Part shown: positions 1-12,904 of the stretch, in pieces
How the letters are laid out: every line of letters begins with the position of its first letter
How positions within the stretch are numbered: the first letter of the stretch is position 1
Source of the DNA: Candidatus Bathyarchaeota archaeon
Lineage (GTDB): Archaea; Thermoproteota; Bathyarchaeia; Hecatellales; Hecatellaceae
Assembly (NCBI GenBank): GCA_052246995.1
Contig: JBQPWD010000009.1
Location: 1-12,904 of the forward strand
Length of the DNA stretch: 12,904 nucleotides
Direction: 5' to 3'
Notes under the pieces: model-generated
Database searches by the model: none
What the model was told of the DNA's origin: nothing
The model's input: only the letters and a program-made list of their open reading frames with translations
Program-made: the position numbers and the translations under genes

Positions 1-170
1 AATCTACGCATACGTTGTTTATCTGTAAACCTGTAAAGTTCACAGTCAAACTCTAAACGCCTCAAATCAACATTCTTGTCAGAACGATTACGCAACAATT
101 CAAGCATGTATTCACGCTCTTTCTGAGTAAGCTTTTTCAATTCACTGATGGTTTTTCTAAACTCGCTCAT
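1..170 (-). CDS. Partial CDS (5' end only, runs off left edge): soluble, charged, probably helical hypothetical protein
   Basis: Not in the ORF track. ATG at 170 opens a stop-free frame to base 1: MSEFRKTISELKKLTQKEREYMLELLRNRSDKNVDLRRLEFDCELYRFTDKQRMRR... It is preceded by GGTG (174-177) and a BRE/TATA promoter. No signal peptide, unlike the upstream genes. Confidence 0.75.
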   Translation of the reverse strand, partial: MSEFRKTISELKKLTQKEREYMLELLRNRSDKNVDLRRLEFDCELYRFTDKQRMRR

Positions 171-203: not shown

Positions 204-217
204 TATATAAAATTTTC
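204..217 (-). promoter_or_regulatory. Archaeal promoter (BRE + TATA box) for the gene starting at 170
   Basis: The minus strand reads GAAAA-T-TTTATATA: a purine-rich BRE followed by a near-consensus TATA (204-211), ending about 34 nt upstream of the ATG at 170. It overlaps the stop codon of the 191-aa gene. Confidence 0.7.
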
Positions 218-792
218 TATACAACACTTCTTCTTTTACGACCCCAATACAGTATAAATATTATTAGTAAAACAAACACCATGAATATTAACGGCATGGC
301 TGGATGAACACCGCTTGAAACACAATAGTTTTCATATGCACTATATAATGCTTTATGAGTGTTGAACAAGCCTAAGCCTAAAGCAACTAGACAAATGTAA
401 GCAATTAAAGGTGCATAATAATATTTTATTTTCCATTTAGCACAGAACATTATGCTTAAATGTAGAAAAGCAATAAAACTTACAGCAAGCATCACAGCAC
501 TTATGTAAGCTATTTCAGTGCCTGCACATGCACCTAAAAGAGTGTCCCAAACATAAGGAAACAATATTAAACCGAAACCCTTAACTGGAACAGTAGACTG
601 AACATTTACAACACTAGATAATACAGCAGAAGGAACCCATGAAACAATTAAAAGCAAACTCTGAACAACCAAGCCTTTAGCAATCTTCAATATGCCTAGA
701 AAAACAAGAATCAAAACAAGTATAACAGCTAGACTTGAAACACCTAGTCCACCGATAAGCCATTGAACAAGATTACCTATGTCAATTTCCAT
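217..792 (-). CDS. Polytopic integral membrane protein (about 5-6 TM helices), function unknown
   Basis: 191 aa, almost entirely hydrophobic segments, with a basic C-tail (GRKRRSVV). Its start overlaps the upstream stop as TAATG (790-794), indicating translational coupling to the giant protein. Confidence 0.85.
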   Translation of the reverse strand: MEIDIGNLVQWLIGGLGVSSLAVILVLILVFLGILKIAKGLVVQSLLLIVSWVPSAVLSSVVNVQSTVPVKGFGLILFPYVWDTLLGACAGTEIAYISAVMLAVSFIAFLHLSIMFCAKWKIKYYYAPLIAYICLVALGLGLFNTHKALYSAYENYCVSSGVHPAMPLIFMVFVLLIIFILYWGRKRRSVV

Positions 793-3700
793 TATCTAAC
801 TCTTCTCCTAACAGTTCTAGGTTTATATGTAGGCTTTCTATGTGTAATATAATATATTGAAGAAAACATTACAGCAAAACATGCAACAATCAAAACAGCA
901 TTTTCGAAGCTTAAACTTAGAAAGCTTAAGTCTAAACTTAAAGACGGTAAACTAACACTTGGAAGCTTCAACAGTTCATCGAAGCTTGGAACAGTAAACA
1001 AAGGTGGAGTCCTATGCGTTATTACTAGAACAGCATGTAGCAAACTGCCAACAGTAAACAAGCCTAACAGAACAGCTATAAAAGTGTAGCCTCTACGTTC
1101 AATAACGACGGAGCCAATAGCACCTAACAAAGCAAAAAACATCCACAAAACACTATACGAGTCTAAAACTACAGTTATAGGCGTAACAGTTAAAGATGGC
1201 AGACTAAACGTTTTAGTTATCGGTTCATTTGAAATTGTAACAGTTTCAGTTAATACTGTGTCGTCATACTTTACTGTTACGTTGTATGTTCCGGGTCCAA
1301 GCTGTACAATAACTGTTCCCCAAGCATCTGTTTTTCCACTGTAAACAGTAGCATTATAAATGTCTATAATAGTGACTGAAGCCCCTGAAACATACAAGCC
1401 TTTGCTGTCTCTAACTATAACAGTCAACGGATAAGTGTAAACTATACTGCCAACAGCTCCTCCTGCTTCTTTCTTTTTAACAATAAAATACGGTGTTTCA
1501 ACACTTCCCAGCAAAACATCGCTTCCACGAATGTAAAATGTCATGTTAAGTTTGTAACTGCCCTCGCTTAAAGCACATGGAAAACTGAGTGTTTTAGTTT
1601 CATAATCATTTGCGAAAGTTCCATTATATAACGGAAAATTGAAGAACCCGTAATATTTGTCTCCCGCATATATTAAAGCTTTCCAGTAAACATTACTTAA
1701 AGGCACATAAGTGTCGTTAATCTTTGCTTTAGGCAAATACTTCATTATAATAGTCATGTAGTTGCCACTGTAAACTATAACAGGGTCCATGCTGAAAACC
1801 TCAATGTCCAACACTTTAACACTAACATCGAAACTGTAACTGTAACTGTCAATTTCATAGTCAATTCTTGAACAGTTAAACGTTAAAGTGCAGTTTCCAT
1901 AAATGTTTTTTGTTGATTGAACGCTTAAATAGCCAGATGAATTTGTTATTGCTTCAATCTCCTGCCATAAACTATTGTTTAAATATATTCTAAGTTTAAC
2001 AGTTTTATTGATTAAAGGACCATCATATAAACTGTTAACTTTAACAGTTAAATTGAAAATTGTTCCTGAAGAAAACTTGAAATCCACAATCTCATTATAG
2101 TCCCAGATAACGCTTGGATAAGGTGCTACATGATTAACAACTGTTATTCCATGTATGTTACCTGAAACTGAACTAACATAATAAGAATGTTTGACTACAC
2201 TGTTTTCACACACGTTTATTTCCCATCTACCATGATCAGAGTTATAGTTCGCGAATGAACTATTAACAAGAACAAAACCGTCGTTCACTAGCATGTTGTC
2301 ATACTCATATTTCAAAACAAAATAAACAGTAACAGCTACTCCAATATTAACTCGCTCTTTTGTTACACCAGAATTTTCAACTTTAATTCTATCCCATACA
2401 ACAGTTACAGATTTGCCATTTTGATTTACAACATTCAAACCATACATAGACTCTGAACCCGAAACATCATTATATGTTTCTGATGTAACAGTTGAACATG
2501 ACCTCATTATTCTATAAACACCTGAACCCATATAAACAGCAGGATAACCATTGATGTTGATTGTTCCTGTTGTAACAGCATTCCCATCGTATTCATATTC
2601 TAACGTTACATTAACATCAACGTTTTCATTTATGTTCACTCTGTACTTTGAAACACTATAAGAAACAACCATGATTCTGTCTACAATTACATTTACAGTT
2701 TGATTTTGTACAGTGTTCTGGTCAGTGACAGCATAAACAGTATAGCTATACAATCCAACACTTGATTCACCAGTAAAAGATATAGAAAACAAACCGTTCC
2801 TATCAATTACCGTTGTTGAACCCTTGTTTATGTTTCCTAAATCAACCTTAACAGTTATCCCGCTGGCATCCTCTGGCGGAATAGTTGTCCCCTCGTAATA
2901 CAACGTTCCAGTTATCGTTATAAGCTGGTTTGGGTTGATTCTTCCGTCATCTACGTTGGTGTCAGCCACTATTAAGTCGTCTTCAAAAACAAAAAGATTA
3001 ACATGTGAACTTGAACCATAACATCCATTTCTGTCAAAAACCTTAGTGTTTTCTGAAACAATCGAAACATAACCTTCAGGATAATTCCATGAAAGTTTTA
3101 TCCTCCATGAAAGCATGTATGCTGTACTGTTTAAACTAGTTTTGAAGCTATTTGAACTATCTAAAGTACAATAATTGTAAGGATCATAGTGTTTAGAGAA
3201 ACTTGAAGTGTTTTCCCATTTCAATATAACATTATTGGAGAATTCAACGGTCACATTTACAAGATCGTTCACTCCATCTAAATCGTTAACAGTAACGTTA
3301 AACAAAAAGAACTTGTTAGCGTAAACAATCACTGGAGAAGCGAACTCACCAATAGATGGAGGATTGCTTACAGTAATGGTTAGAAAAGCGTATTTGATAT
3401 AGTAGGGGCTGGTTGCCCCTTTCAAATATTCTAAACCAATATAATAGGTTGAGGTTGAACCTGAGCTACGATAGAAACATGTCAACACATCATTAGCAGT
3501 AATATCTACTTCTGAAAACCAAGCCGTGGGTTCAGTGTCCCAATAACCATTTATGCAACGTTTATAGTAAAGAACTCCGCTTACAGTCCAGAAACAGTAA
3601 AGTGTCCCAGATTCGTCAACACTTAAAACAGGAGCGGAAGAGCTTGATACTGTAGCTTGAACGGTAAACGTTGGAGACCAACTGTTTGTTGAATAGCTAT

Positions 3701-6164
3701 AGTTAATATATTCAATATCATAGTAGCTGTATTCAAGAAAAACAACATGTACAACATCATTATAAGCAACAGCACTCACATAAGCAAAATTCTGCATACG
3801 TAAACCTGTAGAAACTTCGTTAAGCCATGCTGTACCATTAAATGCTCTCCCATAAATGTAACTGCTTCCATAAAGAACAAACATTTTTAGATTAGATAAA
3901 GGCACGACTATAGAATTTATTGCGCCTAGAGAAGTGAAACTACTAATTCGAACGGGATAACCATAAGCTGTATTCCATGATCCATTATTGCTGTAAGATT
4001 TAGTCACATTCAAGTATGAGCCACCAACATGATATGAAATGTATGGACAACCATTAGAGTCCACGGCTATGTTACAAACTCTATAAACACCAGAAAAGCC
4101 TTCTACAGCTATAAACTCATCATAAAAATCAATTGTTCCGTCGCTTCTTGGAACTCCACATCTGTACAAAATATGTACATTACCGCACAACAATGCACCT
4201 CTTGCTATAGCAATATGCAAATGTGTTCCATTAAAGAATGAAGACAGTTGATAACCGTAAATAGGTATAGGATCAATTTGAAAGTTCTCTATTCTACTGT
4301 TGTATTCACTGCTTCCAAAATAGAACCTAACCTCACTATTAGAAAAGTAAGTGTAATAATATACAGTCCAAGTTGAATTAACCAAGCCAGTACACTCCAA
4401 ACGTTTAGTAGTGAAAGTTGCAAGTTCATACCATGAACCCGTTAGAGAAGGAATTCTAACATAAACTCTTACAACAAGACTATCTGTTCCAACAAAACTA
4501 ACACTACTAGAAGCAGTCCATGAACTACTTTGATAGCCTTCACCACTCTGATTTCTTGTAACAATCATTTTATACCCACTAGCTTCATCTATTTCAACTT
4601 CTGTTCCATCTTTCGATCTCCGCCAGAGTCTTATACCCCAATCAGCTGATGTAGGAGTATAAGTAGCTCTAATAAAACATGCATCAACATATATTGTTCC
4701 GCTTGAAACATAAGATAAAACATACATTTTCGCATTATTAAGTTCAGTCCAAGTCCAAGAGTTCGGAATATTTGTTATGTCACGATAATACCAAATGAAA
4801 AAAGTATAAGTGACATTGCAGGCGAAAAAGATATCAGACCAAGTTACTCCATCATATACAGCACAATACAAACCAACAACATCACTTTCAGATCCTTTTC
4901 TCGCACAGAAACCTATCTCGACTCGGGATATTTGTCCACTTCCAGTAAAATTGGAGAAACCGAAGTTTCCATGCTTTAAATTGTTCGTGCTAGTATAAAT
5001 ATAGCTTTCGTCATTAATGTTATTTAAATAAGGAGAAATTCCATAAGTGTTCCATTGTAGATAAGTATCGTCCAAAGAATCAACGTATTGGCTTTCATAT
5101 AAACTCGATAATGTTTTTCTGACATACATAGCAGATGTTCCCTGTTCTGTTGAAAGCCAATACCCTGACAAACCGTTAACAGTCTTAGAAACACTTGTGA
5201 AATACCTTACAGAAACACTTGCACCCATACTAGGCTCTTCACGAAGCGTTCTAGGTGGTTCCCAAGCAGAACCGTCAAGACTAGAAGAAAACAAATAATC
5301 TGTGCTACTTGTAAACAAAACCCAATGTCTACCATTAGCATAGAAATTTTTCCTTTGAGAAGCAAACTGAGTAGATGATGAAACCGACGTTTGAGCGACA
5401 ATACTTGGATCTATATCTTCATCGTTTAACTTAAATCTAACTTGAATAAAAGAACCCTTAAAGCCAAACAATTCATAATTCCCACTATAAACCTCAGCTT
5501 CACCATAATCGTCCCAAGTAGCCATACACCATGTCTTCCAGTTCATGGGGTTTTCGTCAACACCGAACTCAATATATTTCACTCTTTCTCTAAGAACCTT
5601 TAGAGTCGTAAACTCTTTAATGTCTTTAGCGTGTGTACTGTTCAACATTACATGTTGATGTGTTCTAGAGAAGATAAGCCAACAAATAGTAAAGTCTCCA
5701 AGGTTCCATTTTTCTGTCTTTGAAAGAGAAACAGAGATTTTAGGTTTGACATCTTTGAAGAACCTGTGTGTTATAGTTAATGTTGCAACCTTAAATGTAC
5801 GAACAACATCAACCCGCACTTGAAACACACTATCATTAGCAATTACAATGTTCTGATTTATTAAAATAGGAATCCCTAAACTTGTGTTAATGTAGAAGAA
5901 CGAGTTGCTAACAAGTTCAGAACCATCAAAGAAAGTGAAACTCATAATATAGCTTAACTTTTTGTCAAAAGAATAGTTTCCAAACGATGTGACATATATG
6001 TAGCTTTTGTCTGTAACAACCATGTAAGGTTCAAAAAAGCCTCTTTCATTATACACGTTGTTAGAAACAGCGTATGTTATCCGTTGCTCTTGTGCTGAAA
6101 AAACAGTAACCAAGACAGTTAATTGTAGAAAAAAGAGAACGATCAAGTACACAGCTCTTTTCAC
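792..6164 (-). CDS. Giant (~1790 aa) secreted, membrane-anchored multidomain surface protein (adhesin/spike-like)
   Basis: Sec signal (KRAVYLIVLFFLQLTVLVTVFSA|Q). An ~255-aa N-domain ends in DIDPS. An Asp-box-like propeller region follows (SSSLDGSAW, SYSNNGSW, FNGTAW), then three ~96-100-aa Ig-like repeats and a carboxypeptidase-regulatory-like domain (LTVIVRDSKG..VSGASV..GKTDAWG..LGPGTYNVTV). It ends in 3 TM helices and a basic tail. The ORF track starts at 6173; GTG at 6164 fits the GGTG RBS (6173-6176) better. Confidence 0.9.
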   Translation of the reverse strand: MKRAVYLIVLFFLQLTVLVTVFSAQEQRITYAVSNNVYNERGFFEPYMVVTDKSYIYVTSFGNYSFDKKLSYIMSFTFFDGSELVSNSFFYINTSLGIPILINQNIVIANDSVFQVRVDVVRTFKVATLTITHRFFKDVKPKISVSLSKTEKWNLGDFTICWLIFSRTHQHVMLNSTHAKDIKEFTTLKVLRERVKYIEFGVDENPMNWKTWCMATWDDYGEAEVYSGNYELFGFKGSFIQVRFKLNDEDIDPSIVAQTSVSSSTQFASQRKNFYANGRHWVLFTSSTDYLFSSSLDGSAWEPPRTLREEPSMGASVSVRYFTSVSKTVNGLSGYWLSTEQGTSAMYVRKTLSSLYESQYVDSLDDTYLQWNTYGISPYLNNINDESYIYTSTNNLKHGNFGFSNFTGSGQISRVEIGFCARKGSESDVVGLYCAVYDGVTWSDIFFACNVTYTFFIWYYRDITNIPNSWTWTELNNAKMYVLSYVSSGTIYVDACFIRATYTPTSADWGIRLWRRSKDGTEVEIDEASGYKMIVTRNQSGEGYQSSSWTASSSVSFVGTDSLVVRVYVRIPSLTGSWYELATFTTKRLECTGLVNSTWTVYYYTYFSNSEVRFYFGSSEYNSRIENFQIDPIPIYGYQLSSFFNGTHLHIAIARGALLCGNVHILYRCGVPRSDGTIDFYDEFIAVEGFSGVYRVCNIAVDSNGCPYISYHVGGSYLNVTKSYSNNGSWNTAYGYPVRISSFTSLGAINSIVVPLSNLKMFVLYGSSYIYGRAFNGTAWLNEVSTGLRMQNFAYVSAVAYNDVVHVVFLEYSYYDIEYINYSYSTNSWSPTFTVQATVSSSSAPVLSVDESGTLYCFWTVSGVLYYKRCINGYWDTEPTAWFSEVDITANDVLTCFYRSSGSTSTYYIGLEYLKGATSPYYIKYAFLTITVSNPPSIGEFASPVIVYANKFFLFNVTVNDLDGVNDLVNVTVEFSNNVILKWENTSSFSKHYDPYNYCTLDSSNSFKTSLNSTAYMLSWRIKLSWNYPEGYVSIVSENTKVFDRNGCYGSSSHVNLFVFEDDLIVADTNVDDGRINPNQLITITGTLYYEGTTIPPEDASGITVKVDLGNINKGSTTVIDRNGLFSISFTGESSVGLYSYTVYAVTDQNTVQNQTVNVIVDRIMVVSYSVSKYRVNINENVDVNVTLEYEYDGNAVTTGTININGYPAVYMGSGVYRIMRSCSTVTSETYNDVSGSESMYGLNVVNQNGKSVTVVWDRIKVENSGVTKERVNIGVAVTVYFVLKYEYDNMLVNDGFVLVNSSFANYNSDHGRWEINVCENSVVKHSYYVSSVSGNIHGITVVNHVAPYPSVIWDYNEIVDFKFSSGTIFNLTVKVNSLYDGPLINKTVKLRIYLNNSLWQEIEAITNSSGYLSVQSTKNIYGNCTLTFNCSRIDYEIDSYSYSFDVSVKVLDIEVFSMDPVIVYSGNYMTIIMKYLPKAKINDTYVPLSNVYWKALIYAGDKYYGFFNFPLYNGTFANDYETKTLSFPCALSEGSYKLNMTFYIRGSDVLLGSVETPYFIVKKKEAGGAVGSIVYTYPLTVIVRDSKGLYVSGASVTIIDIYNATVYSGKTDAWGTVIVQLGPGTYNVTVKYDDTVLTETVTISNEPITKTFSLPSLTVTPITVVLDSYSVLWMFFALLGAIGSVVIERRGYTFIAVLLGLFTVGSLLHAVLVITHRTPPLFTVPSFDELLKLPSVSLPSLSLDLSFLSLSFENAVLIVACFAVMFSSIYYITHRKPTYKPRTVRRRVR
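2103..2981 (-). repeat. Three tandem ~96-100-aa Ig-like protein repeats (D-R-I-x-V...R-V-N-I...L-x-Y-E-Y-D...V-[VI]-W-D)
   Basis: Boundary Asp codons start at 2981, 2681, 2393 and 2102 (spacings 300, 288 and 291 nt). Units 2 and 3 align clearly (RVNINENVDVNVTLEYEYD / RVNIGVAVTVYFVLKYEYD; YGLNVVN / HGITVVN). Unit 1 is more diverged (GRINPNQLITITGTLYYE). Confidence 0.75.
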
Positions 6165-6201
6165 GATCATCACACCAAATCTAACTGCATAGTGCTAGAT
6201 T

Positions 6202-7380
6202 TCAAATTGTTTTTCCGTATCCCAAAGCAACAGAAAACATGTCTCTGATGTCCACTTTACCATCACCCGTCACATCAGCTACAGGATTCCAATTGTTTGC
6301 CCACGGAGTAGAACCGTAAGCCAAAGCTACTGTCAAAATATCCTTAATATCAATCTTACCATCCAAGTTCACATCTATCTTGCCAAGAGTTCCAGTTTCC
6401 TTCATACCCACATACGCATCGCTTCCGTGACCACTAAACCAAACCATTTTTAAAACACCTACTGAAACTTCACACATGTAGTAGTTGTACGGAGACCTCG
6501 AGTTAAAAACAATGCCCCCCACTATTCCAAAGTGCCCCGAGTTGTCCGTGAACCACAAGTATCCGAAACTATCCTTGAGAACTTGATATGGACCCTCATA
6601 TGTCACAAGAGCTGTTTCAAGACGAAAGACGTTAGAATGGTTTTCCTTATCTATCACAGCAATAGTTCCCATTGGCAGACCTGCTTCATCCACTTTTTTT
6701 GCTTCAGCCACATAAACGTATTTGCTGTCAACCTCTAGTCCGAAAGGACGGTTAAAACCGTAGATAGTTTCCACAATACAGCCTAACGTAATGTCGAAAA
6801 CACTGACACTATTATTTTCTAAGTTTGAGATCCATATTAAATTCTTGTCTTCATGTATGCATCCTCTATAACTGCCAACGTAATAACTAATATATTCAAG
6901 CGTTGTAGTGTTGACTTTCAACAGAAAACTTCGAATAGGAGGACTTACCGCTAGTCCTCTAGCCCATATGAAACCATTATAATATGTTACTGAATAAAAT
7001 TCAACATACTCTTGAGTAACAATTGTAAAGCTTTTTGTTTTAATGTCAAATTTCATTAAATATTCTCCTGCTATCCAAACGTTGCCTTCCCCGTCAATAG
7101 TAACAGTTCTAATACTGTAACCTATGTCATACAAAGTATATGGATTAGACTCTTTAAGTATGACTTTGCTGACATTCACTTCAGCCAACTGTCTCGTTGC
7201 AAATAGAGCAATATAAACCATGAGGTTTTTGGGGTTAAATACTAGACCTAACGGTGTGCTATTGTAGGGTAAGTCCAAGTATTGAATATTGCCTGCATGA
7301 ACTATGAATGTGGAGTTGTTTACATATAAAGTGATGATCAACATAAGTGTTATCATGGTGAGCAATGGTTTCTTCAACAT
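6202..7380 (-). CDS. Secreted ~7-bladed beta-propeller (NHL/Vgb-like) protein with a C-terminal type I-like dockerin
   Basis: Signal peptide ends in VHA|G. Blade-like repeats include PLGLVFNPKNLMVYIA, TVTIDGEGNVWIA, PFGLEVDSKYVYVAE and PYQVLKDSFGYLWFTD. Duplicated Ca-binding loops DVNLDGKIDIKD and DVTGDGKVDIRD are linked by AYGS...NWNPVAD. No TM anchor. Confidence 0.88.
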   Translation of the reverse strand: MLKKPLLTMITLMLIITLYVNNSTFIVHAGNIQYLDLPYNSTPLGLVFNPKNLMVYIALFATRQLAEVNVSKVILKESNPYTLYDIGYSIRTVTIDGEGNVWIAGEYLMKFDIKTKSFTIVTQEYVEFYSVTYYNGFIWARGLAVSPPIRSFLLKVNTTTLEYISYYVGSYRGCIHEDKNLIWISNLENNSVSVFDITLGCIVETIYGFNRPFGLEVDSKYVYVAEAKKVDEAGLPMGTIAVIDKENHSNVFRLETALVTYEGPYQVLKDSFGYLWFTDNSGHFGIVGGIVFNSRSPYNYYMCEVSVGVLKMVWFSGHGSDAYVGMKETGTLGKIDVNLDGKIDIKDILTVALAYGSTPWANNWNPVADVTGDGKVDIRDMFSVALGYGKTI

Positions 7381-7385
7381 TTCAC

Positions 7386-7392
7386 CACCTCC
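7386..7392 (-). promoter_or_regulatory. Strong Shine-Dalgarno GGAGGTG
   Basis: GTGGAGGTGGTGAA-ATG; GGAGGTG lies 5 nt before the ATG at 7380. Confidence 0.8.
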
Positions 7393-7426
7393 ACTTTTTC
7401 TTCAATTTCAATTATTAAAGATGTGA

Positions 7427-7440
7427 CTATTAAACTTTTA
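7427..7440 (-). promoter_or_regulatory. Probable archaeal promoter (BRE + TATA) for the propeller-dockerin gene
   Basis: The minus strand reads TAAAAG-TTTAATAG directly after the upstream stop, in the largest (60 nt) intergenic gap. A second TTTAATAA lies 15 nt further downstream. The spacing would put the start site upstream of the SD. Confidence 0.55.
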
Positions 7441-7902
7441 TTAATAAACGGTGACCGTTACTGTTTGACTCTCACTTTTCTTTAAAAGATTATCTCCTTC
7501 AAAGACAGCTTTAAAGTCATAGGTTCCAGCTTTATAGAAAAAATATGAAAATACTGCTTCCCCATAGTTTGAAACGTAAAATGTGTTTTTAACAGACAGA
7601 ACAGTCCAATATTCTGTGTCATTAGTTTTAAACATTAAAGCTATTGGTTTATCTTTTAACACGTATGGACGTATCTGTTCTCCTATACTTGAAAGTTCAC
7701 TTGGAACATTAAAATCTAATTGTGCTTTAAAAGATACAGAGCTTCCAACTGAAAAAACTGTTGAACTTTCATTTAACGACAAAGTTAGAACAGTTGAAAA
7801 ACTATACACAGAAACATATGGTCGAACAAAGCTTTCACCGAAGTATCCGATTCCCACGCCTATAAGTACTCCTATAAGAAATATTATTATTTCTCTTCCC
7901 AT
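7441..7902 (-). CDS. Small N-terminally anchored protein with one Ig-like beta-sandwich domain
   Basis: 153 aa. N-terminal TM IIIFLIGVLIGVGIGYFG (GxxxGxxxG). Ig-like pattern VGSSVSFKAQL...GEAVFSY...AGTYDFKAVFEGD..L..SES..VTVTV. RBS AGGAG; 4 nt from the upstream stop. Confidence 0.85.
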   Translation of the reverse strand: MGREIIIFLIGVLIGVGIGYFGESFVRPYVSVYSFSTVLTLSLNESSTVFSVGSSVSFKAQLDFNVPSELSSIGEQIRPYVLKDKPIALMFKTNDTEYWTVLSVKNTFYVSNYGEAVFSYFFYKAGTYDFKAVFEGDNLLKKSESQTVTVTVY

Positions 7903-7906
7903 TCTT

Positions 7907-8902
7907 TCAGCTCCTTTTATGTTTTCTGTAATTATACAAAAGAATTATGAATATGCAAACAATTATGGATATAACAGTAAAATTGACAACAAAAGAATCC
8001 GCTTGTTTTAAATTTTCATATCCAGTGGGATCTGTTTGACCAATAAACGCTTGAGGATTATCTCCTTGCCCACTCTTAAACCATTCAACAGTACATTGAA
8101 TGGCTATATCAATATACTTGTTAGCATCTTCAGTACTCACAAAGTTTTTAATGAAATCTGAGAAAGCTTTATAAAAACTCCACCAGCCTCCCGCCTGTGG
8201 AATCACGAAACCTTCAGTATAGAATTTTCCTCCAGAAAGAATACCATTAAACAGAGATGCTTCATCTGAAAAACTGTTAGCAACTGTTCTTCCTAAAACT
8301 TTGTCTGCCCATTCAACAGGTGTTAACCATCCCCCTTTTTCAGAACTCCAGAAATAGTCGTTACCTTCAAAAGGAACATTCCACATTGCAAAGCTACTAT
8401 AAGACATTGCTTCAACAAGAGGATCTTCTGCTATAAGTCTAGCTTCAAGTAAACCCTCAACTAAAGGATGAATAATATTGTTTTGAACAAACGTGTTTCT
8501 TATTTTCTCTGGAATCCACATGTTATGTGACACAGCATCCTGTATCAAATGAACACCCACACCTAAAGCAAAAGCTTTTGCTCTGTCATCATTTGCTTCA
8601 CAAGCCTGTCTCCAAAGCTCTTTTTGAAATGTCCAAGCGTGTGTAGCAGAATAGCTTTTCCATTCACTATAATAGTAGATTACAGTAACGTCAGGATACA
8701 TCATTCCAGTCAAAAACCAGCTTTTCATACCGGGTTTCATTATAATGTTTGTTAAAGTAGTATTTCCTGCAAGCTTCAAAACTTTTTCAGTAAAGTATAT
8801 ATGCGTGCATGGACCCCAAGCATTTGCTTTTTCAACGTTCACCGTAAAAAATAACAGAGCAAACAGAATAAGAATTGAAAAAACTATCTTAAATTTCTTC
8901 AT
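7907..8902 (-). CDS. Membrane-anchored zinc-dependent phospholipase C family (PLC/S1-P1 nuclease fold) phosphodiesterase
   Basis: Signal cleavage ANA|W exposes the N-terminal Trp. Ligand set in the expected order: W29, H34, D71 (GMMYPD), H88, H118-xxx-D122-xxx-H126, H145-xxx-E149. C-terminal TM followed by RKHKRS. Confidence 0.88.
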   Translation of the reverse strand: MKKFKIVFSILILFALLFFTVNVEKANAWGPCTHIYFTEKVLKLAGNTTLTNIIMKPGMKSWFLTGMMYPDVTVIYYYSEWKSYSATHAWTFQKELWRQACEANDDRAKAFALGVGVHLIQDAVSHNMWIPEKIRNTFVQNNIIHPLVEGLLEARLIAEDPLVEAMSYSSFAMWNVPFEGNDYFWSSEKGGWLTPVEWADKVLGRTVANSFSDEASLFNGILSGGKFYTEGFVIPQAGGWWSFYKAFSDFIKNFVSTEDANKYIDIAIQCTVEWFKSGQGDNPQAFIGQTDPTGYENLKQADSFVVNFTVISIIVCIFIILLYNYRKHKRS

Positions 8903-10076
8903 GTTTTCTTATCATCCTTATTAACATTAATACTATTACAATAGACACTGGAACCAAAATGTATGGTGTAGTTATGAACTTCCAGATGTCAAATCCACTT
9001 GTAACAGTTGCAACTTTTAAACCGTTCTCAGTTAATGGAATAGGGTAAGTACCTACAAAAGCCTGTCCTATAAGTCTTATTTGATACCAAGACTCAACTA
9101 GGTGAAAGTATACTCTAATAGTGTTTGCAGTTAACTGTTCAACGTTTACATATCCATTTCTTCTGGAAAAAATCATTCCCGTAGGCGACTCTATTTCTAT
9201 GTCTATGTCTGCTACACGTATAGTAATTGGATTAAGACGTGCATCTGTAAATTCAATATCAAAATATCCACAGCCATACGCAACTTCTATACCTATGCCT
9301 GCATTTATTCCCGGAATAACCGTAATTGTTTCACCTGTTTGAAAAATATATTTTGTAGCAACAACAGGAGTCCTTAAATCTACAGTAAACTCAGACTCCA
9401 GAGATACGTATGACATGTAATATGCTTTAACAGTTATTGTATATGTTCCTGTGAAGTCATTATTGACGTTGAATGGAAACTCATATACGCCTGTTTCAAC
9501 TTGTATAGGTGTGAACTGTATCAAAGATGTTGAAGATGGAGCATTATATGGAACATTTATTCTAACTATTTCCCACTTTGTAGGAGAAAAAATAACAGAG
9601 TCTGCTTCAGTTTCTTTCGCCCTAAGCCTCAAAACAATATCTTTGTTTGTCAAAGGGTCAATAAACTGAACTTTGTCGTGTAAACCTTCAACAATAACAC
9701 CCGGAACACACTTAACATTAACAGTCAAAGAAGCAAACTCTCCAGACGGAGAACTGAACGTTATTTGCTCACTTTGTGAGCTTCTAGGTGGTTTAACAGA
9801 GAAATAAACCTTTCCAGTGTTGGGTTCTGAATAAAATGTCTTTGAAGAGTATTCCCATGAAACTTTAATTTCTACCTTTACATATGAGCTAGTGAACGTG
9901 CCGTCAATTTTCCTAATTGTTGCTGACAGTTTTGTTTCAACATTTACTGGAAGACATAGTCCATCTGAGAAGTCTGCTGTAATATAATATAAGTACTGGG
10001 CTGATACTTTGTTGATGTTTGACAAGAAAACCATTGAAAACATGAAAAATGTAAGTAAAAGATATGTTTTTCTCAT
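8889..10076 (-). CDS. Secreted type I membrane protein (~395 aa) with about three Ig-like domains; paralog of the C-terminal part of the upstream protein
   Basis: Likely start ATG 10076 (MRKTY...VSA|Q), 1 nt after the upstream TAA and preceded by AGGAGG; the ORF track start at 10115 is probably too long. Beta-rich ectodomain, then TTPY, a TM helix and RMIRKHEEI. Overlaps the PLC gene by 14 nt. Confidence 0.87.
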   Translation of the reverse strand: MRKTYLLLTFFMFSMVFLSNINKVSAQYLYYITADFSDGLCLPVNVETKLSATIRKIDGTFTSSYVKVEIKVSWEYSSKTFYSEPNTGKVYFSVKPPRSSQSEQITFSSPSGEFASLTVNVKCVPGVIVEGLHDKVQFIDPLTNKDIVLRLRAKETEADSVIFSPTKWEIVRINVPYNAPSSTSLIQFTPIQVETGVYEFPFNVNNDFTGTYTITVKAYYMSYVSLESEFTVDLRTPVVATKYIFQTGETITVIPGINAGIGIEVAYGCGYFDIEFTDARLNPITIRVADIDIEIESPTGMIFSRRNGYVNVEQLTANTIRVYFHLVESWYQIRLIGQAFVGTYPIPLTENGLKVATVTSGFDIWKFITTPYILVPVSIVIVLMLIRMIRKHEEI

Positions 10077-10077
10077 T

Positions 10078-12735
10078 TTAATGTTTTCTCCTCCTAAGTA
10101 ATATCGCCAAAACAATTAGTGCAACAAATCCTATGAAATACGGGTTAGTCAATAGTGGAGGTATGCTTGGAGTTTCATATGTTGATATGTTGAAAACTTG
10201 AGGTTCCTGATAGAATGGTAAACCAGAGTATTTAACGATAACTTTGTATGTTCCGATTTTATTGAAAGAGTAAACTATTGTAATGCTTTTGTCAGCATCA
10301 CTAAAAGTATATCTGTCTTTAAGTTCGTTTGCGGTCGTCATGGACACTCCATCTGGATCAGTAATTATAACCTCAATATTGTTTTCGGATATTCCTTTAT
10401 AGGGCTGGTTATACTTGTCTTTGAAAGCAATAATTATTTTGTTTGAACCAATAGGTATGCTAGTAGGACTAATAATAGCCACAACTGAAGGCGGTGTCAT
10501 TTTAGCTGTTGCTGTCAATTCAGTGCTGATCCAACCTGTCTTTTTAAATGTTATTTTCAAGGTTAAAGTATGCGTTTCGTAGTTAAAGCTTGGATTTATA
10601 GATTTATAGAAGTCGAAAACTTTGGCTTGCAATGTAAAACTGTTTCCTGAAGCTTGATATAAAATGTAATCGTTGCTCACCTGTACACCTTTTTCATCCG
10701 TTAACGAAATAGTAGAGGCAGAAACATATAACACAGGCTCATCAGTTTCTCTATTCACAATTGAACCTTTATATACAAAGTCGAAGTCACCCGGTTTATA
10801 TATTTGTTCAGTTGAAAAGCTTATCTGTTTAATAGCTAACTGAGGAAGAACTTTCAAAGAGAAACATTTAACAACTTTGTTTTCATATAATACTGTCATG
10901 TTATAGGGGCTATCCTGACTACGTGAAGGAGTTAAGATTGTTATCGTTGTTGTCCCATCTGAACCAGTGATACCTGACTTTGTAAACCCTGTATATGTGC
11001 CTTTTGGTTCAATAATTAAAGTTAACGATATACCACTTACAGTTTTGCCTGTAGCTACATCTTTTGCTAAAAGCTTAACATCAACGTTTGCACTTGGAGG
11101 AAACTCCAACAATGTAAGGCAATCAACAGTAATTTCATAAATAATAGTTATGCTTTTTGCAGTAGTGTCTGTACTTCTTCCATCAGTTACTGTTAACTTA
11201 ACGTTATATGTGTTAGCGCTTGTATATTTATGTGAAACAGATGGAGAATTTGTGTTAAGCGTAGAACCATCTCCAAAATCCCATGCATAGTTTGTAATAG
11301 AACCTTTACCCGTAAACATGAAAGTTATCAAACTATTAACTTTTAATTCGCCGGAATATGTGAAATCTGCTTTAATAGGTTCATTTACGACAACTGTTTT
11401 CGAAACCTCTGGACTTGTGTATGGAGTGCTATCTACAATGTACAATTTTACAGTATGAGAACCTGTTGTTCGAAAAGTATAAGTAAATATTGGAACAGTT
11501 GTAACAGTTGAGTAGCCGTCTATTGTCCAATGATATTCTTTTATGGTGGAGCCGGAGGAAGGCTTAGAAGTAGAAGCGTCAAAAGTAACTGTTTCATTTG
11601 CATATGGCACACTAGGTGTCCATGTGAAACTTGCATAACCATACTCGATCGGAGAAACGAATATTGTAATGCTTGCACTTCCAGAAGTGTTTTCATCGTC
11701 AATAACCGTTAATGTAATAGTATATGCACCAGCATTGTAATAAACATGAGTAACACTTACACCATTAGCAGTTGCTCCATCACCGAAATCCCAATAGTAG
11801 CTAATTATGGTGCCCCCGTCTGGGTCATACGAGCCGGATCCATCAAAATTAACAGTCAAAGGAGCATAACCACTTGTTTTGTCTACAGAAATTTTCGCCA
11901 CGACTGTAATAGCGTTCACATGTACAATTATTGATTTTGTGGCTGTTAATCCATAATCATCTGTGACAGTTAATGAAACAGTATTGTCTCCATAATTTTT
12001 AAAAACATATGTAAATGTTGCTCCAGTAACTGTTTTAACAGTAGTCCCATCGTATATTGTCCAGCTGTAGCTTACTATTGAGCCATCTAAGTCATATGAA
12101 TGGCTACCATCAAAAGTTACTGTTGCTCCAACAGTTGGAACTGTCGGATAATGGTCTATGATAGCTTCTGGAGGCTTGTTTTTCTCAACTGTAATGGTTC
12201 CTCCTGAACGCATATTGATGTTTGTTGTTCTATCAATTATTTCGGGTCTTTTAGAAACAGTTACAGTATAACATGGAACTTCATTTTGATGAATAATGTC
12301 GTAAAATTCTAAAATACATGAACCGTCAACATCTGTTACTCCGTAAGTCAAAGTATTTTCTAAAGTTAATCCACGATTTTGACTGATCCATGAAATATCT
12401 TTCACGTCAATTTTTCCATCTCCGTTCATGTCAGCCCAACGAACATTTACTTGTCCATAATATCCTTGCACATACATAACATCATAGTCATCTATCTTAA
12501 AGTCTAGCTCGGGTAGCATACTGACAGAGTTGAAAACATCACCTAGCAAATGAAATGTTCCTTCAGTTGCTATAGCACGAAGGGTTGCACCTGCAACAGC
12601 GGAACCATAATTGTCTACAACCTTTATTGTTCCACTTGGAATCGGAGTTAAAGTAAACGGTAATATTTTTACAAGCATAATTAAAATAGAAATGGCAACG
12701 ATAGCTAACAGTATTACAGCTACATGTTTCTTCAT
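10078..12735 (-). CDS. PKD-domain surface protein (~885 aa): N-terminal TM/signal, dockerin-containing domain, 4 PKD domains, Ig-like stalk, C-terminal TM
   Basis: Likely start ATG 12735 (MKKHV) after AGGTG. Ca-binding loop ADMNGDGKIDVKD. PKD signatures VTFDGSHSYDLDGSIVSYSW, YYWDFGDG, YHWTIDG and YAWDFGDG. Ends in TNPY, a TM helix and RRRKH. Confidence 0.92.
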   Translation of the reverse strand: MKKHVAVILLAIVAISILIMLVKILPFTLTPIPSGTIKVVDNYGSAVAGATLRAIATEGTFHLLGDVFNSVSMLPELDFKIDDYDVMYVQGYYGQVNVRWADMNGDGKIDVKDISWISQNRGLTLENTLTYGVTDVDGSCILEFYDIIHQNEVPCYTVTVSKRPEIIDRTTNINMRSGGTITVEKNKPPEAIIDHYPTVPTVGATVTFDGSHSYDLDGSIVSYSWTIYDGTTVKTVTGATFTYVFKNYGDNTVSLTVTDDYGLTATKSIIVHVNAITVVAKISVDKTSGYAPLTVNFDGSGSYDPDGGTIISYYWDFGDGATANGVSVTHVYYNAGAYTITLTVIDDENTSGSASITIFVSPIEYGYASFTWTPSVPYANETVTFDASTSKPSSGSTIKEYHWTIDGYSTVTTVPIFTYTFRTTGSHTVKLYIVDSTPYTSPEVSKTVVVNEPIKADFTYSGELKVNSLITFMFTGKGSITNYAWDFGDGSTLNTNSPSVSHKYTSANTYNVKLTVTDGRSTDTTAKSITIIYEITVDCLTLLEFPPSANVDVKLLAKDVATGKTVSGISLTLIIEPKGTYTGFTKSGITGSDGTTTITILTPSRSQDSPYNMTVLYENKVVKCFSLKVLPQLAIKQISFSTEQIYKPGDFDFVYKGSIVNRETDEPVLYVSASTISLTDEKGVQVSNDYILYQASGNSFTLQAKVFDFYKSINPSFNYETHTLTLKITFKKTGWISTELTATAKMTPPSVVAIISPTSIPIGSNKIIIAFKDKYNQPYKGISENNIEVIITDPDGVSMTTANELKDRYTFSDADKSITIVYSFNKIGTYKVIVKYSGLPFYQEPQVFNISTYETPSIPPLLTNPYFIGFVALIVLAILLRRRKH
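11142..12180 (-). repeat. Array of four PKD domains
   Basis: Four ~80-90-aa units, each with a T/N-F strand, a W-[DT]-[FI]-x-DG motif and a G-x-Y/H-T-V-x-L-T-V-x-D-like strand. Confidence 0.85.
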
Positions 12736-12760
12736 TTTTAGACACACCTGAGTTTTTCTT

Positions 12761-12904
12761 TTACCATTCTATTTCATCTTCCTTTTTAACCAGTAAGGTG
12801 ACTCCAGCACAAAACATGGATACACCTAACAGTAATAAAGCAAATTCTAAAGTAAATTTAAAGGCAGTAGATGGGAGAACTACTATAACTTGTAAACTGT
12901 TCAT
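12761..12904 (-). CDS. 3' end of an upstream gene encoding a C-terminally TM-anchored protein (probably truncated by the window edge)
   Basis: Not in the ORF track. The frame from 12904 reads MNSLQVIVVLPSTAFKFTLEFALLLLGVSMFCAGVTLLVKKEDEIEW*, with stop TAA at 12761-12763: a beta-strand, a TM helix and a charged tail, like the neighbouring genes. The ATG at the very edge may be internal. Confidence 0.7.
   Translation of the reverse strand: MNSLQVIVVLPSTAFKFTLEFALLLLGVSMFCAGVTLLVKKEDEIEW

Follow-up and report, generated by a model that had tools for sequence, protein, structure and literature searches.

A conserved array of anchored adhesin-like proteins with a phospholipase C/P1 nuclease-fold enzyme in a Bathyarchaeia assembly: a candidate surface module of a mobile element

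Only for very few archaeal viruses and other mobile elements is it known how they recognise the archaeal envelope and get across it. In the consulted passages of a 2024 review (PMC10791045), membrane fusion by archaeal viruses is described for the pleolipoviruses only, and the word “lipase” does not occur; nor is a phospholipase mentioned in either of the two reviews of archaeal virus entry of which it is one. Four families are proposed in a survey of Bathyarchaeia viruses, a term search of which returned neither phospholipase nor dockerin, PKD or CAAX (PMC10541130). Here, we propose that contig JBQPWD010000009.1 (C9) of the Candidatus Bathyarchaeota archaeon assembly GCA_052246995.1, analysed as the window over its entire 12,904 bases, comes from the interior of a conserved array, met with repeatedly in metagenomes, in which about 20 genes run in one direction. 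We further propose, as a reading with an even chance of being correct, that the array is the surface/envelope (target-contact) module of an undescribed archaeal mobile element, be it a virus or a vesicle- or plasmid-like element, free or integrated. The array offers a defined candidate set, with a conserved core that includes one clear enzyme and with cassette positions that resemble specificity determinants.

A first-pass annotation of this DNA had seen in it a gene combination that it could not assign to a named system. We likewise found no named system with such a combination, nor a paper whose title or abstract describes it. The genes are called g1 to g8 (Table 1), g3 encoding the enzyme. 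A scan of metagenome contigs with a g3 alignment gave 20 loci, which were read for 10 kb on each side of g3, and synteny was counted in the testable loci from tblastn searches of the eight window proteins and from maps of open reading frames (ORFs). Upstream of g2, g1 is present in all 15 loci with room for it. The g2 gene lies directly upstream of g3 in 17 of 18 loci, the exception (L020) having the most distant g3 (32% identity), and g4 follows g3 immediately in 12 of 14, with L016 and L017 carrying an ORF of 78-81 amino acids instead. Full-length g5 was found in 8 of 10 loci at 30-37% identity; L016 matches its dockerin part only, and L006 has an unrelated PSII_BNR propeller protein. Every locus that reaches far enough has g6 (7 of 7), g7 (5 of 5) and g8 (5 of 5). 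The annotation had held that its idea would fall if homologues of these genes were never co-located elsewhere: the order g1 to g8 is maintained wherever the loci extend far enough, at 25-68% identity to the window proteins (35-68% for g8). We consider the array to be a real, conserved gene unit on the strength of this gene order, and one that is undescribed as far as we searched.

In the longer metagenome loci the full array comprises about 20 co-directional genes, those before g1 all lying on the same strand as the rest. In L004 and L016 the upstream conserved genes and the downstream small ORFs occupy one strand over 20.9-21.0 kb. The upstream genes (Table 1) include an Rce1-like protease, in which the motifs EExxxR, H and HxxxD can be recognised by eye, and a dockerin protein of about 340 amino acids (for example L004:5138-6160, Dockerin_1 35.1 bits), whose C-terminus resembles that encoded by the gene fragment at the upstream end of the window. 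Downstream of g8 are many ORFs of 57-157 amino acids, several of them basic or zinc-finger-like, and the flanks hold repeated NUMOD/Vsr-like, zinc-ribbon and basic small proteins, with a homing-endonuclease PHROG match in L016 (phrog_314, E 3.7e-6). A comparison of L004 with L006 is instructive: most genes are 86-98% identical, the 340-residue protein is only 47% identical, the 649- and 821-residue proteins are unrelated, and g5 is replaced. The differences amount to cassette swaps at fixed positions. A conserved core (g2, g3, g4, g7 and g8 and, in the related loci, the Rce1-like protease and the 73- and 141-residue proteins) alternates with positions that are exchanged whole, namely those of the 340-residue dockerin protein, the 650-820-residue protein and g5. 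In L013/L014, the g1 position holds three consecutive large g1-like genes of 885, 910 and 700 amino acids (1270-3927, 3940-6672 and 6654-8756), whose middle domains differ (PKD; InlB B-repeat with Big_1), a local expansion of an adhesin position.

The 141-residue protein led to a family that proved non-discriminating. Its distant relatives carry DUF5771 (PF19075), a domain found in 7 of 401 genomes of the class in both element-like and chromosomal contexts, and our literature search returned no paper mentioning DUF5771. One such contig (L049; genome G356, contig C51, 1-6532) encodes an N6/N4 DNA methylase, a 138-residue dockerin protein and a basic DUF5771 protein, the last two being 34-43% identical to the 340-residue family and 37-45% identical to the 141-residue protein of the array, respectively. 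The contig is possibly a remote relation of elements like the one proposed here.

The product of g3 had been annotated as a tethered phospholipase C (PLC)-like enzyme. It matches Zn_dep_PLPC (PF00882) over residues 33-159 at 44.1 bits (cut-off 26.8), as do all of its 28 relatives in a collection of 5.8 billion proteins, which are 33-67% identical and all metagenomic. Nine residues are invariant in an alignment of 24 sequences (W29, H34, D71, H88, H118, D122, H126, H145 and E149), and they probably correspond to the metal ligands of the B. cereus and P1 structures. A free N-terminal Trp ligates zinc in this enzyme fold. In g3, W29 directly follows the ANA that ends the signal peptide and would be the first residue of the mature protein after cleavage, the domain extending from residue 29 to about residue 282. 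The structural model (predicted local distance difference test score, pLDDT, 86.6) was compared with 48,161 chains by VIA-align, giving Listeria PC-PLC (8cqm_B; Z 9.0, root-mean-square deviation (rmsd) 4.3, 156 residues aligned), B. cereus PLC (1ah7_A; Z 8.4) and the N-domain of clostridial alpha-toxin (1olp_A; Z 7.4), after which rank three S1/P1-type nucleases (Z 5.3-5.7), with unrelated rows from Z 4.3. Residue 29 of the model was aligned to chain residue 1 of both 1ah7 and 1olp. Foldseek with the full-length model against the PDB gave spurious helical-membrane matches, none at E ≤0.001, and a PDB sequence search with the g3 profile matched no solved chain. From sequence and model together, we assign to g3 the zinc PLC/P1-nuclease fold with a full set of metal-ligand-type residues. 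Its C-terminal transmembrane (TM) anchor carries a basic tail, and the two would tether the catalytic domain outside the membrane. The fold and anchor of the annotated enzyme hold, and its substrate may be either lipid or nucleic acid: the fold scores favour PLC, while the N-terminal W-x4-H spacing resembles that of the S1/P1 nucleases rather than that of PLC. Chromosomal PLC-like proteins of about 290-306 amino acids in two genomes of the class (L053:1378-2247 in G325; L055:1132-2052 in G113) end in “..PEF..”, after which come a run of hydrophobic residues and a basic tail. To the eye these ends resemble the PEF-CTERM archaeosortase signal, an ending that g3 of the array does not have.

Around this enzyme are encoded proteins of adhesin-like make-up. 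The four PKD stretches that had been annotated in g1 are borne out by Pfam (E 1.7e-53), and the protein ends in TNPY, a TM segment and an RRRKH tail. Of the two dockerin-bearing proteins annotated, g5 is secure (Dockerin_1 27.7 bits, cut-off 22.9, two canonical Ca loops) and g1 falls below the cut-off, with 17.8 bits in hmmscan and one canonical Ca loop at residues ~82-122; a six-frame search gave the latter 22.8 bits, or 23.4 bits with its neighbours. The remainder of g5 is a probable beta-propeller, with sub-threshold matches to Reg_prop and NHL. As a partner for these dockerins, cohesin (PF00963) had no match at E ≤0.01 in the whole assembly and none in the window proteins, a divergent cohesin-like fold (for example in g6) being possible, and none is among the top 50 structural matches of g2. 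A 227-residue protein of L016 that resembles a cohesin by eye was rejected, having no Pfam match even at E up to 5.

The g2 protein, for which a word-index search found four relatives (itself included), has a conserved motif, KVATV..GF.IW.FIT. Its model, built from a 15-sequence alignment (pLDDT 88.2), divides into domains at residues ~39-138, 138-250 and 251-372, which have generic structural matches: S-layer proteins SbsC/SbsB, invasin, filamin, macroglobulin domains and phage immunoglobulin (Ig)-like tail proteins. We conclude from the model that g2 is an Ig-like stalk of three domains, held in the membrane by a TM anchor. The suggestion that g2 and the C-terminus of g1 form a paralogous stalk pair fared poorly, BLASTP aligning them at E 0.03 over the juxtamembrane and TM segment only. 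Four nucleotides (nt) downstream of g3 begins g4, which matches Big_3_5 at 30.6 bits, under the cut-off of 35.5.

The giant g6 has 31 N-x-S/T sites and ends in three hydrophobic segments and an Arg-rich tail. Its description as a propeller/Ig protein is not fully borne out: its one Pfam match, to CarboxypepD_reg/Ig-like at residues 1583-1648, is sub-threshold, and the propeller has no Pfam support. Asp-box (BNR) motifs were sought by regular expression and, none being found, the idea was dropped. Sequence searches with g6 of the PDB and of the phage collection gave no match, and a Protein Atlas search with g7 and with g6 residues 28-960 gave no usable one. The best conserved protein of the array is g7, which belongs to no known family, has the invariant motifs FPY.WD, LHLSI.FC and G.HP.MP, and is represented by nine cluster representatives among 1.84 billion. 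For g8, the homologue in L004 has a weak, sub-threshold match to DUF7339. A Pfam search of g2, g7 and g8 themselves gave no match, and NCBIfam and PHROGs searches of the window proteins added nothing useful to Pfam.

Every long ORF of the window is on the minus strand, giving seven complete genes and two cut at the contig ends. The eight co-oriented genes for exported or membrane proteins that had been annotated are largely confirmed, in that a hydropathy scan found hydrophobic N-terminal and/or C-terminal segments in g1-g7 and the cut upstream gene also encodes a TM segment; g8, by contrast, is soluble and basic, and the eighth gene of that annotation is probably the upstream fragment. The genes are packed with overlaps and short gaps as claimed, the gaps ranging from 1 to 60 nt, and GGAGG/GGTG-like motifs precede the starts (by eye). 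The true start of g1 is probably the ATG at 12735, and that of g2 is probably M14 at 10076. A TATA-box-like element upstream of g8 (Table 1) suggests that this gene has its own promoter. Terminal repeats, whether direct or inverted, were represented in the window by short chance-level pairs only.

Table 1. Features of the array and of related contigs. Positions are those of the window unless a locus or contig is named; aa, amino acids.
Feature	Position	Strand	Description
3′ end of upstream gene	12761..12904	-	47 codons + stop; C-terminal TM helix, KKEDEIEW tail
g1	10078..12747	-	889 aa; signal/anchor, dockerin-like loop, 4 PKD, Ig-like C-terminal region, TM
g2	8889..10115	-	408 aa; signal peptide, three Ig/macroglobulin-like domains, C-terminal TM
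g3	7907..8902	-	331 aa; signal peptide, PLC / S1-P1 nuclease-fold domain, C-terminal TM
g4	7441..7902	-	153 aa; N-terminal TM anchor + one Ig-like domain
g5	6202..7380	-	392 aa; signal peptide, probable beta-propeller, C-terminal dockerin
g6	792..6173	-	1793 aa; signal peptide, large ectodomain, three C-terminal hydrophobic segments
g7	217..792	-	191 aa; polytopic membrane protein, 4 hydrophobic segments
g8	3..170	-	first 56 codons of ~79-aa soluble, basic, helical protein; cut by contig end
TATA-box-like element TTTTATATA	204..212	-	~35 nt upstream of g8 start; by eye
~319-aa beta-rich anchored protein	upstream of g1 in longer loci		
~290-aa N-x-S/T-rich anchored protein	upstream of g1 in longer loci		
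141-aa very basic protein	upstream of g1 in longer loci		81-95% identical among four loci
75-aa zinc-ribbon protein	upstream of g1 in longer loci		
Rce1-like CPBP intramembrane protease	upstream of g1 in longer loci		PF02517 E 6e-13; 82-98% identical, most loci
Variable 133- or 355-aa membrane protein	upstream of g1 in longer loci		
650-820-aa anchored protein	upstream of g1 in longer loci		
73-aa protein	upstream of g1 in longer loci		83-96% identical
~340-aa protein	upstream of g1 in longer loci		dockerin between two TM segments
477-aa PLC paralogue	L056 (contig C4, 97001-115000), gene 8173-9606		Pfam
260-aa DnaA-like AAA+ protein	C12 2935-3717		phrog_5484 E 1e-32; matches SSV1 B251 + relatives
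856-aa dockerin protein	C12 4247-6817		shares ~270-residue region with g6

The assembly to which the window belongs has 17 contigs, 1.53 Mb and 36% G+C (35.3% for C9). In tetranucleotide usage, C9 correlates with the chromosome at 0.826, a value that 107 of 108 chromosomal chunks of its size exceed, and with the related loci at 0.89-0.96. Few ORFs in the flanks of the related loci match any Pfam family (4 of 17 in L004 and 6 of 18 in L016, none of them housekeeping), and none of the array flank genes has a counterpart elsewhere in the assembly; in the control, an 18-kb chromosomal region around a PLC paralogue of the same genome, 15 of 16 ORFs match Pfam, mostly as redox or repair enzymes (metabolic). 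The g3 family is found in one of 41 relatives and, among the 401 class genomes examined (219 with a completeness of 90% or more), in this genome alone; it was found in none of the 13 that belong to the same family as this archaeon. Scanned by pattern, 185,579 species-representative genomes of bacteria and archaea, a set that may omit the window's own genome, yielded no relative of g3 or g7. One DNA sequencing run, labelled a hot springs metagenome, holds 5% of the sampled window words as fragments 80-99% alike, best over g7 and g8 and with no bridging information, and the same search listed no RNA run as holding window sequence. The annotation had offered an archaeal virus or mobile element as one explanation of the locus, and this context of flanks, composition and distribution fits such an element better than it fits ordinary housekeeping DNA; no virus hallmark was found in the window or in the 10 kb read on each side of the loci.

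Two other contigs of the assembly touch on the array. Dockerins in this genome are confined to C9 and C12 (L027, 1-8338), an 8.3-kb, one-strand, ORFan-rich and fusellovirus-like contig with DUF5658-like small membrane proteins downstream of its dockerin protein (Table 1), to which g6 residues 701-953 are 32% identical (E 3e-16). The DnaA-like protein of C12 has tblastn matches in 60 records of fusello-, gutta- and bicaudavirus type, at 26-31% identity. The ORFan contig C13 (L028, 1-7278) encodes a 189-residue Zot/pI-like P-loop ATPase at 1587-2156 (-), a DUF5658 protein, a 509-residue protein and an ORF of 282 residues with a piece like g6 residues 514-632.

What else might the array be? That unrelated surface genes came together here by chance and form no functional unit, as the generic adhesion domains that are all most of its proteins show might suggest, we consider so improbable as to be negligible, given that the metagenome loci keep the gene order, and even the style of the junctions, where identity has fallen to 25-45%. 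It is also improbable, to a lesser degree, that C9 was mis-binned and carries the array of another unbinned organism of the community, such as a small episymbiotic archaeon attaching to and tapping its host cell. In composition C9 does stand out from its bin, none of the flank genes known from related loci occurs elsewhere in the assembly, and the assembly scores as 100% complete without C9. Against this stand the species-representative set, in no member of which g3 or g7 was found, a G+C content and a domain repertoire that fit the lineage of the bin, and the sharing of a g6 domain and of dockerins with C12 of the same bin. A greater possibility, to which we attach some belief while doubting it on the whole, is that the archaeon itself carries on its chromosome a surface island that varies between strains, with adhesins and an extracellular phosphodiesterase for attachment to particles or partner cells and for phosphate or lipid scavenging; hypervariable through exposure to viruses, such an island would be poorly assembled and rarely binned. 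A vertically inherited envelope system should nevertheless appear in close relatives, which the distribution given above does not bear out. In addition, none of the loci has a housekeeping gene in the 10 kb to each side of the array, in contrast to the control region, where nearly every gene is of that kind; homing-endonuclease-like genes occur in the flanks together with numerous tiny basic ORFs; and the array g3 is remote from the chromosomal PLC-like proteins of the class (hhalign probability 18.6%).

A considerable body of observations weighs against the mobile element and in part speaks for the island. Enzymes of the g3 type are less exotic than the annotation had implied, Zn_dep_PLPC being present in 107 of the 401 class genomes at E ≤0.001 (73 above the cut-off), and this genome has a chromosomal paralogue of 477 amino acids in which Zn_dep_PLPC is followed by an InlB B-repeat and a TM segment with an RRRKHS tail, an ending like that of g1. 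The neighbours of this paralogue are peroxiredoxin, rubrerythrin, desulfoferrodoxin and Ogg genes and an adjoining matrixin-like peptidase, with a 643-residue Beta_propel protein nearby. In another genome of the class (G363; L054:1363-3216), a protein of 617 amino acids combines Zn_dep_PLPC (49.9 bits), cohesin (36 bits) and dockerin (38.3 bits), from which fusion it seems that cohesin-dockerin display of PLC-fold enzymes exists in the class; PLC-fold surface proteins, dockerins and InlB-type repeats are thus all at home on its chromosomes. Members of the g3 family lie on contigs of up to 134,833 bases (array-bearing contigs reach 68-135 kb), large by the standard of known archaeal viruses and in keeping with a chromosome or with an integrated copy. 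The hallmarks named in the annotation (a capsid/matrix protein, an FtsK/HerA/VirB4 ATPase, an integrase, a replication gene, or cohesins) were absent from every locus in a Pfam and PHROGs search that took in the window and, as a portion of each source contig, the 10 kb to either side. The 56 flank proteins were nearly blank against PHROGs, with no capsid, packaging ATPase, replication or integrase match, and no tRNA that might be an attachment site was found in 15 sources, att repeats not having been searched for in the loci. IMG/VR holds no relative of g3, g7 or the 141-residue basic protein, and deposited phage and archaeal-virus records hold none of g3, g7 or g6. CRISPR-spacer matching, also proposed in the annotation, gave 0 of 52 spacers of this genome matching the window or the loci. 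These spacers come from two arrays, at C8 ~18858-19738 (37-nt repeat, 11 spacers) and C14 ~62-2818 (30-nt repeat, 41 spacers); C14 starts inside its array, and no spacer of either matched any sequence examined. A DNA search of the 401 class genomes found no match of at least 30 nt at ≥95% identity outside the own genome, the matches being PKD-coding similarity and short chance-level ones. Same-strand runs of at least 12.5 kb do occur on the chromosome (8 of 465, one of them at least 20 kb), and the amino-acid content of surface proteins could account for the atypical composition of C9. The composition of C11 resembles that of C9 (r 0.93); C11 (L030, 1-9305) has at one end the 3′ end of a type IA topoisomerase gene, followed by ORFans and a 1103-residue STAND-like P-loop protein. 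Because this contig with its topoisomerase end resembles C9, a C9-like composition also marks accessory chromosomal DNA. Finally, cassette variation is to be expected in envelope islands too.

If the array is the target-contact module of a mobile element, how might it work? Its proteins would sit together on one membrane, where the swapped adhesin-like cassettes (PKD, Ig, propeller, CBM96, InlB-repeat and dockerin-type Ca modules) would set target specificity. The tethered g3 phosphodiesterase would then act in trans on the contacted cell, cutting lipid head-groups and so destabilising the membrane or, less probably, cutting nucleic acid, and g4 may hold or regulate the adjacent g3. A bolder version, which we think unlikely, makes the array the envelope module of large membrane-bound archaeal elements that form a lineage of their own, whether viruses or vesicles that transfer themselves, with a dozen surface proteins, their own Rce1-type intramembrane protease and a tethered PLC-fold enzyme that opens the target membrane. 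Were this true, no lipid-cutting entry enzyme would have been proposed for an archaeal element before g3, and host range would be set by adhesin-cassette swapping. If the array is instead cellular, it would still show that an uncultured archaeal class has a modular surface display system that varies between strains, along with a family of membrane-tethered PLC/P1-fold enzymes facing ether-lipid membranes.

How does the array compare with known systems? With the zinc PLCs (1ah7, 8cqm and 1olp) and the S1-P1 nucleases (5fb9 and 3w52), g3 shares the fold, the PF00882 match and the nine metal-ligand-type residues; it differs from them in having about 120 extra residues with a C-terminal TM anchor, and in having no sequence-level match to the solved chains. 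To cohesin-dockerin (cellulosome-type) assemblies, the array is alike in the dockerins of g5 and of the upstream 340-residue protein and in the surface display of an enzyme with binding modules. Unlike those assemblies, the array has only one enzyme, and its proteins each have their own membrane anchor, because of which a scaffoldin is not needed. Spindle-shaped viruses (Fuselloviridae and relatives) are touched on through C12, where the dockerin protein encoded alongside the DnaA-like one shares a region with g6, and through one g2 domain that matches the tail protein of spindle virus SSV19 (7xdi_E; Z 9.6, rmsd 2.5, 88 residues aligned), among many Ig-like folds. Unlike in the Fuselloviridae, no DnaA-like, VP1/VP3-type capsid or integrase gene was found within 10 kb of the array in any locus or on C9, and in size the array by far exceeds the fusellovirus structural modules known to us. 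The genes looked for as signs of a fusellovirus-like element, for a DnaA-like AAA+ protein and for small two-helix capsid proteins next to the adsorption protein, are recorded for C12 instead. Finally, the array proteins are like the spike and fusion proteins of pleolipoviruses (HRPV-2 and HRPV-6), which bind the host surface and breach the membrane, in being membrane-anchored ectodomains; whereas pleolipoviruses use one or two envelope proteins and no lipase, the array has a dozen.

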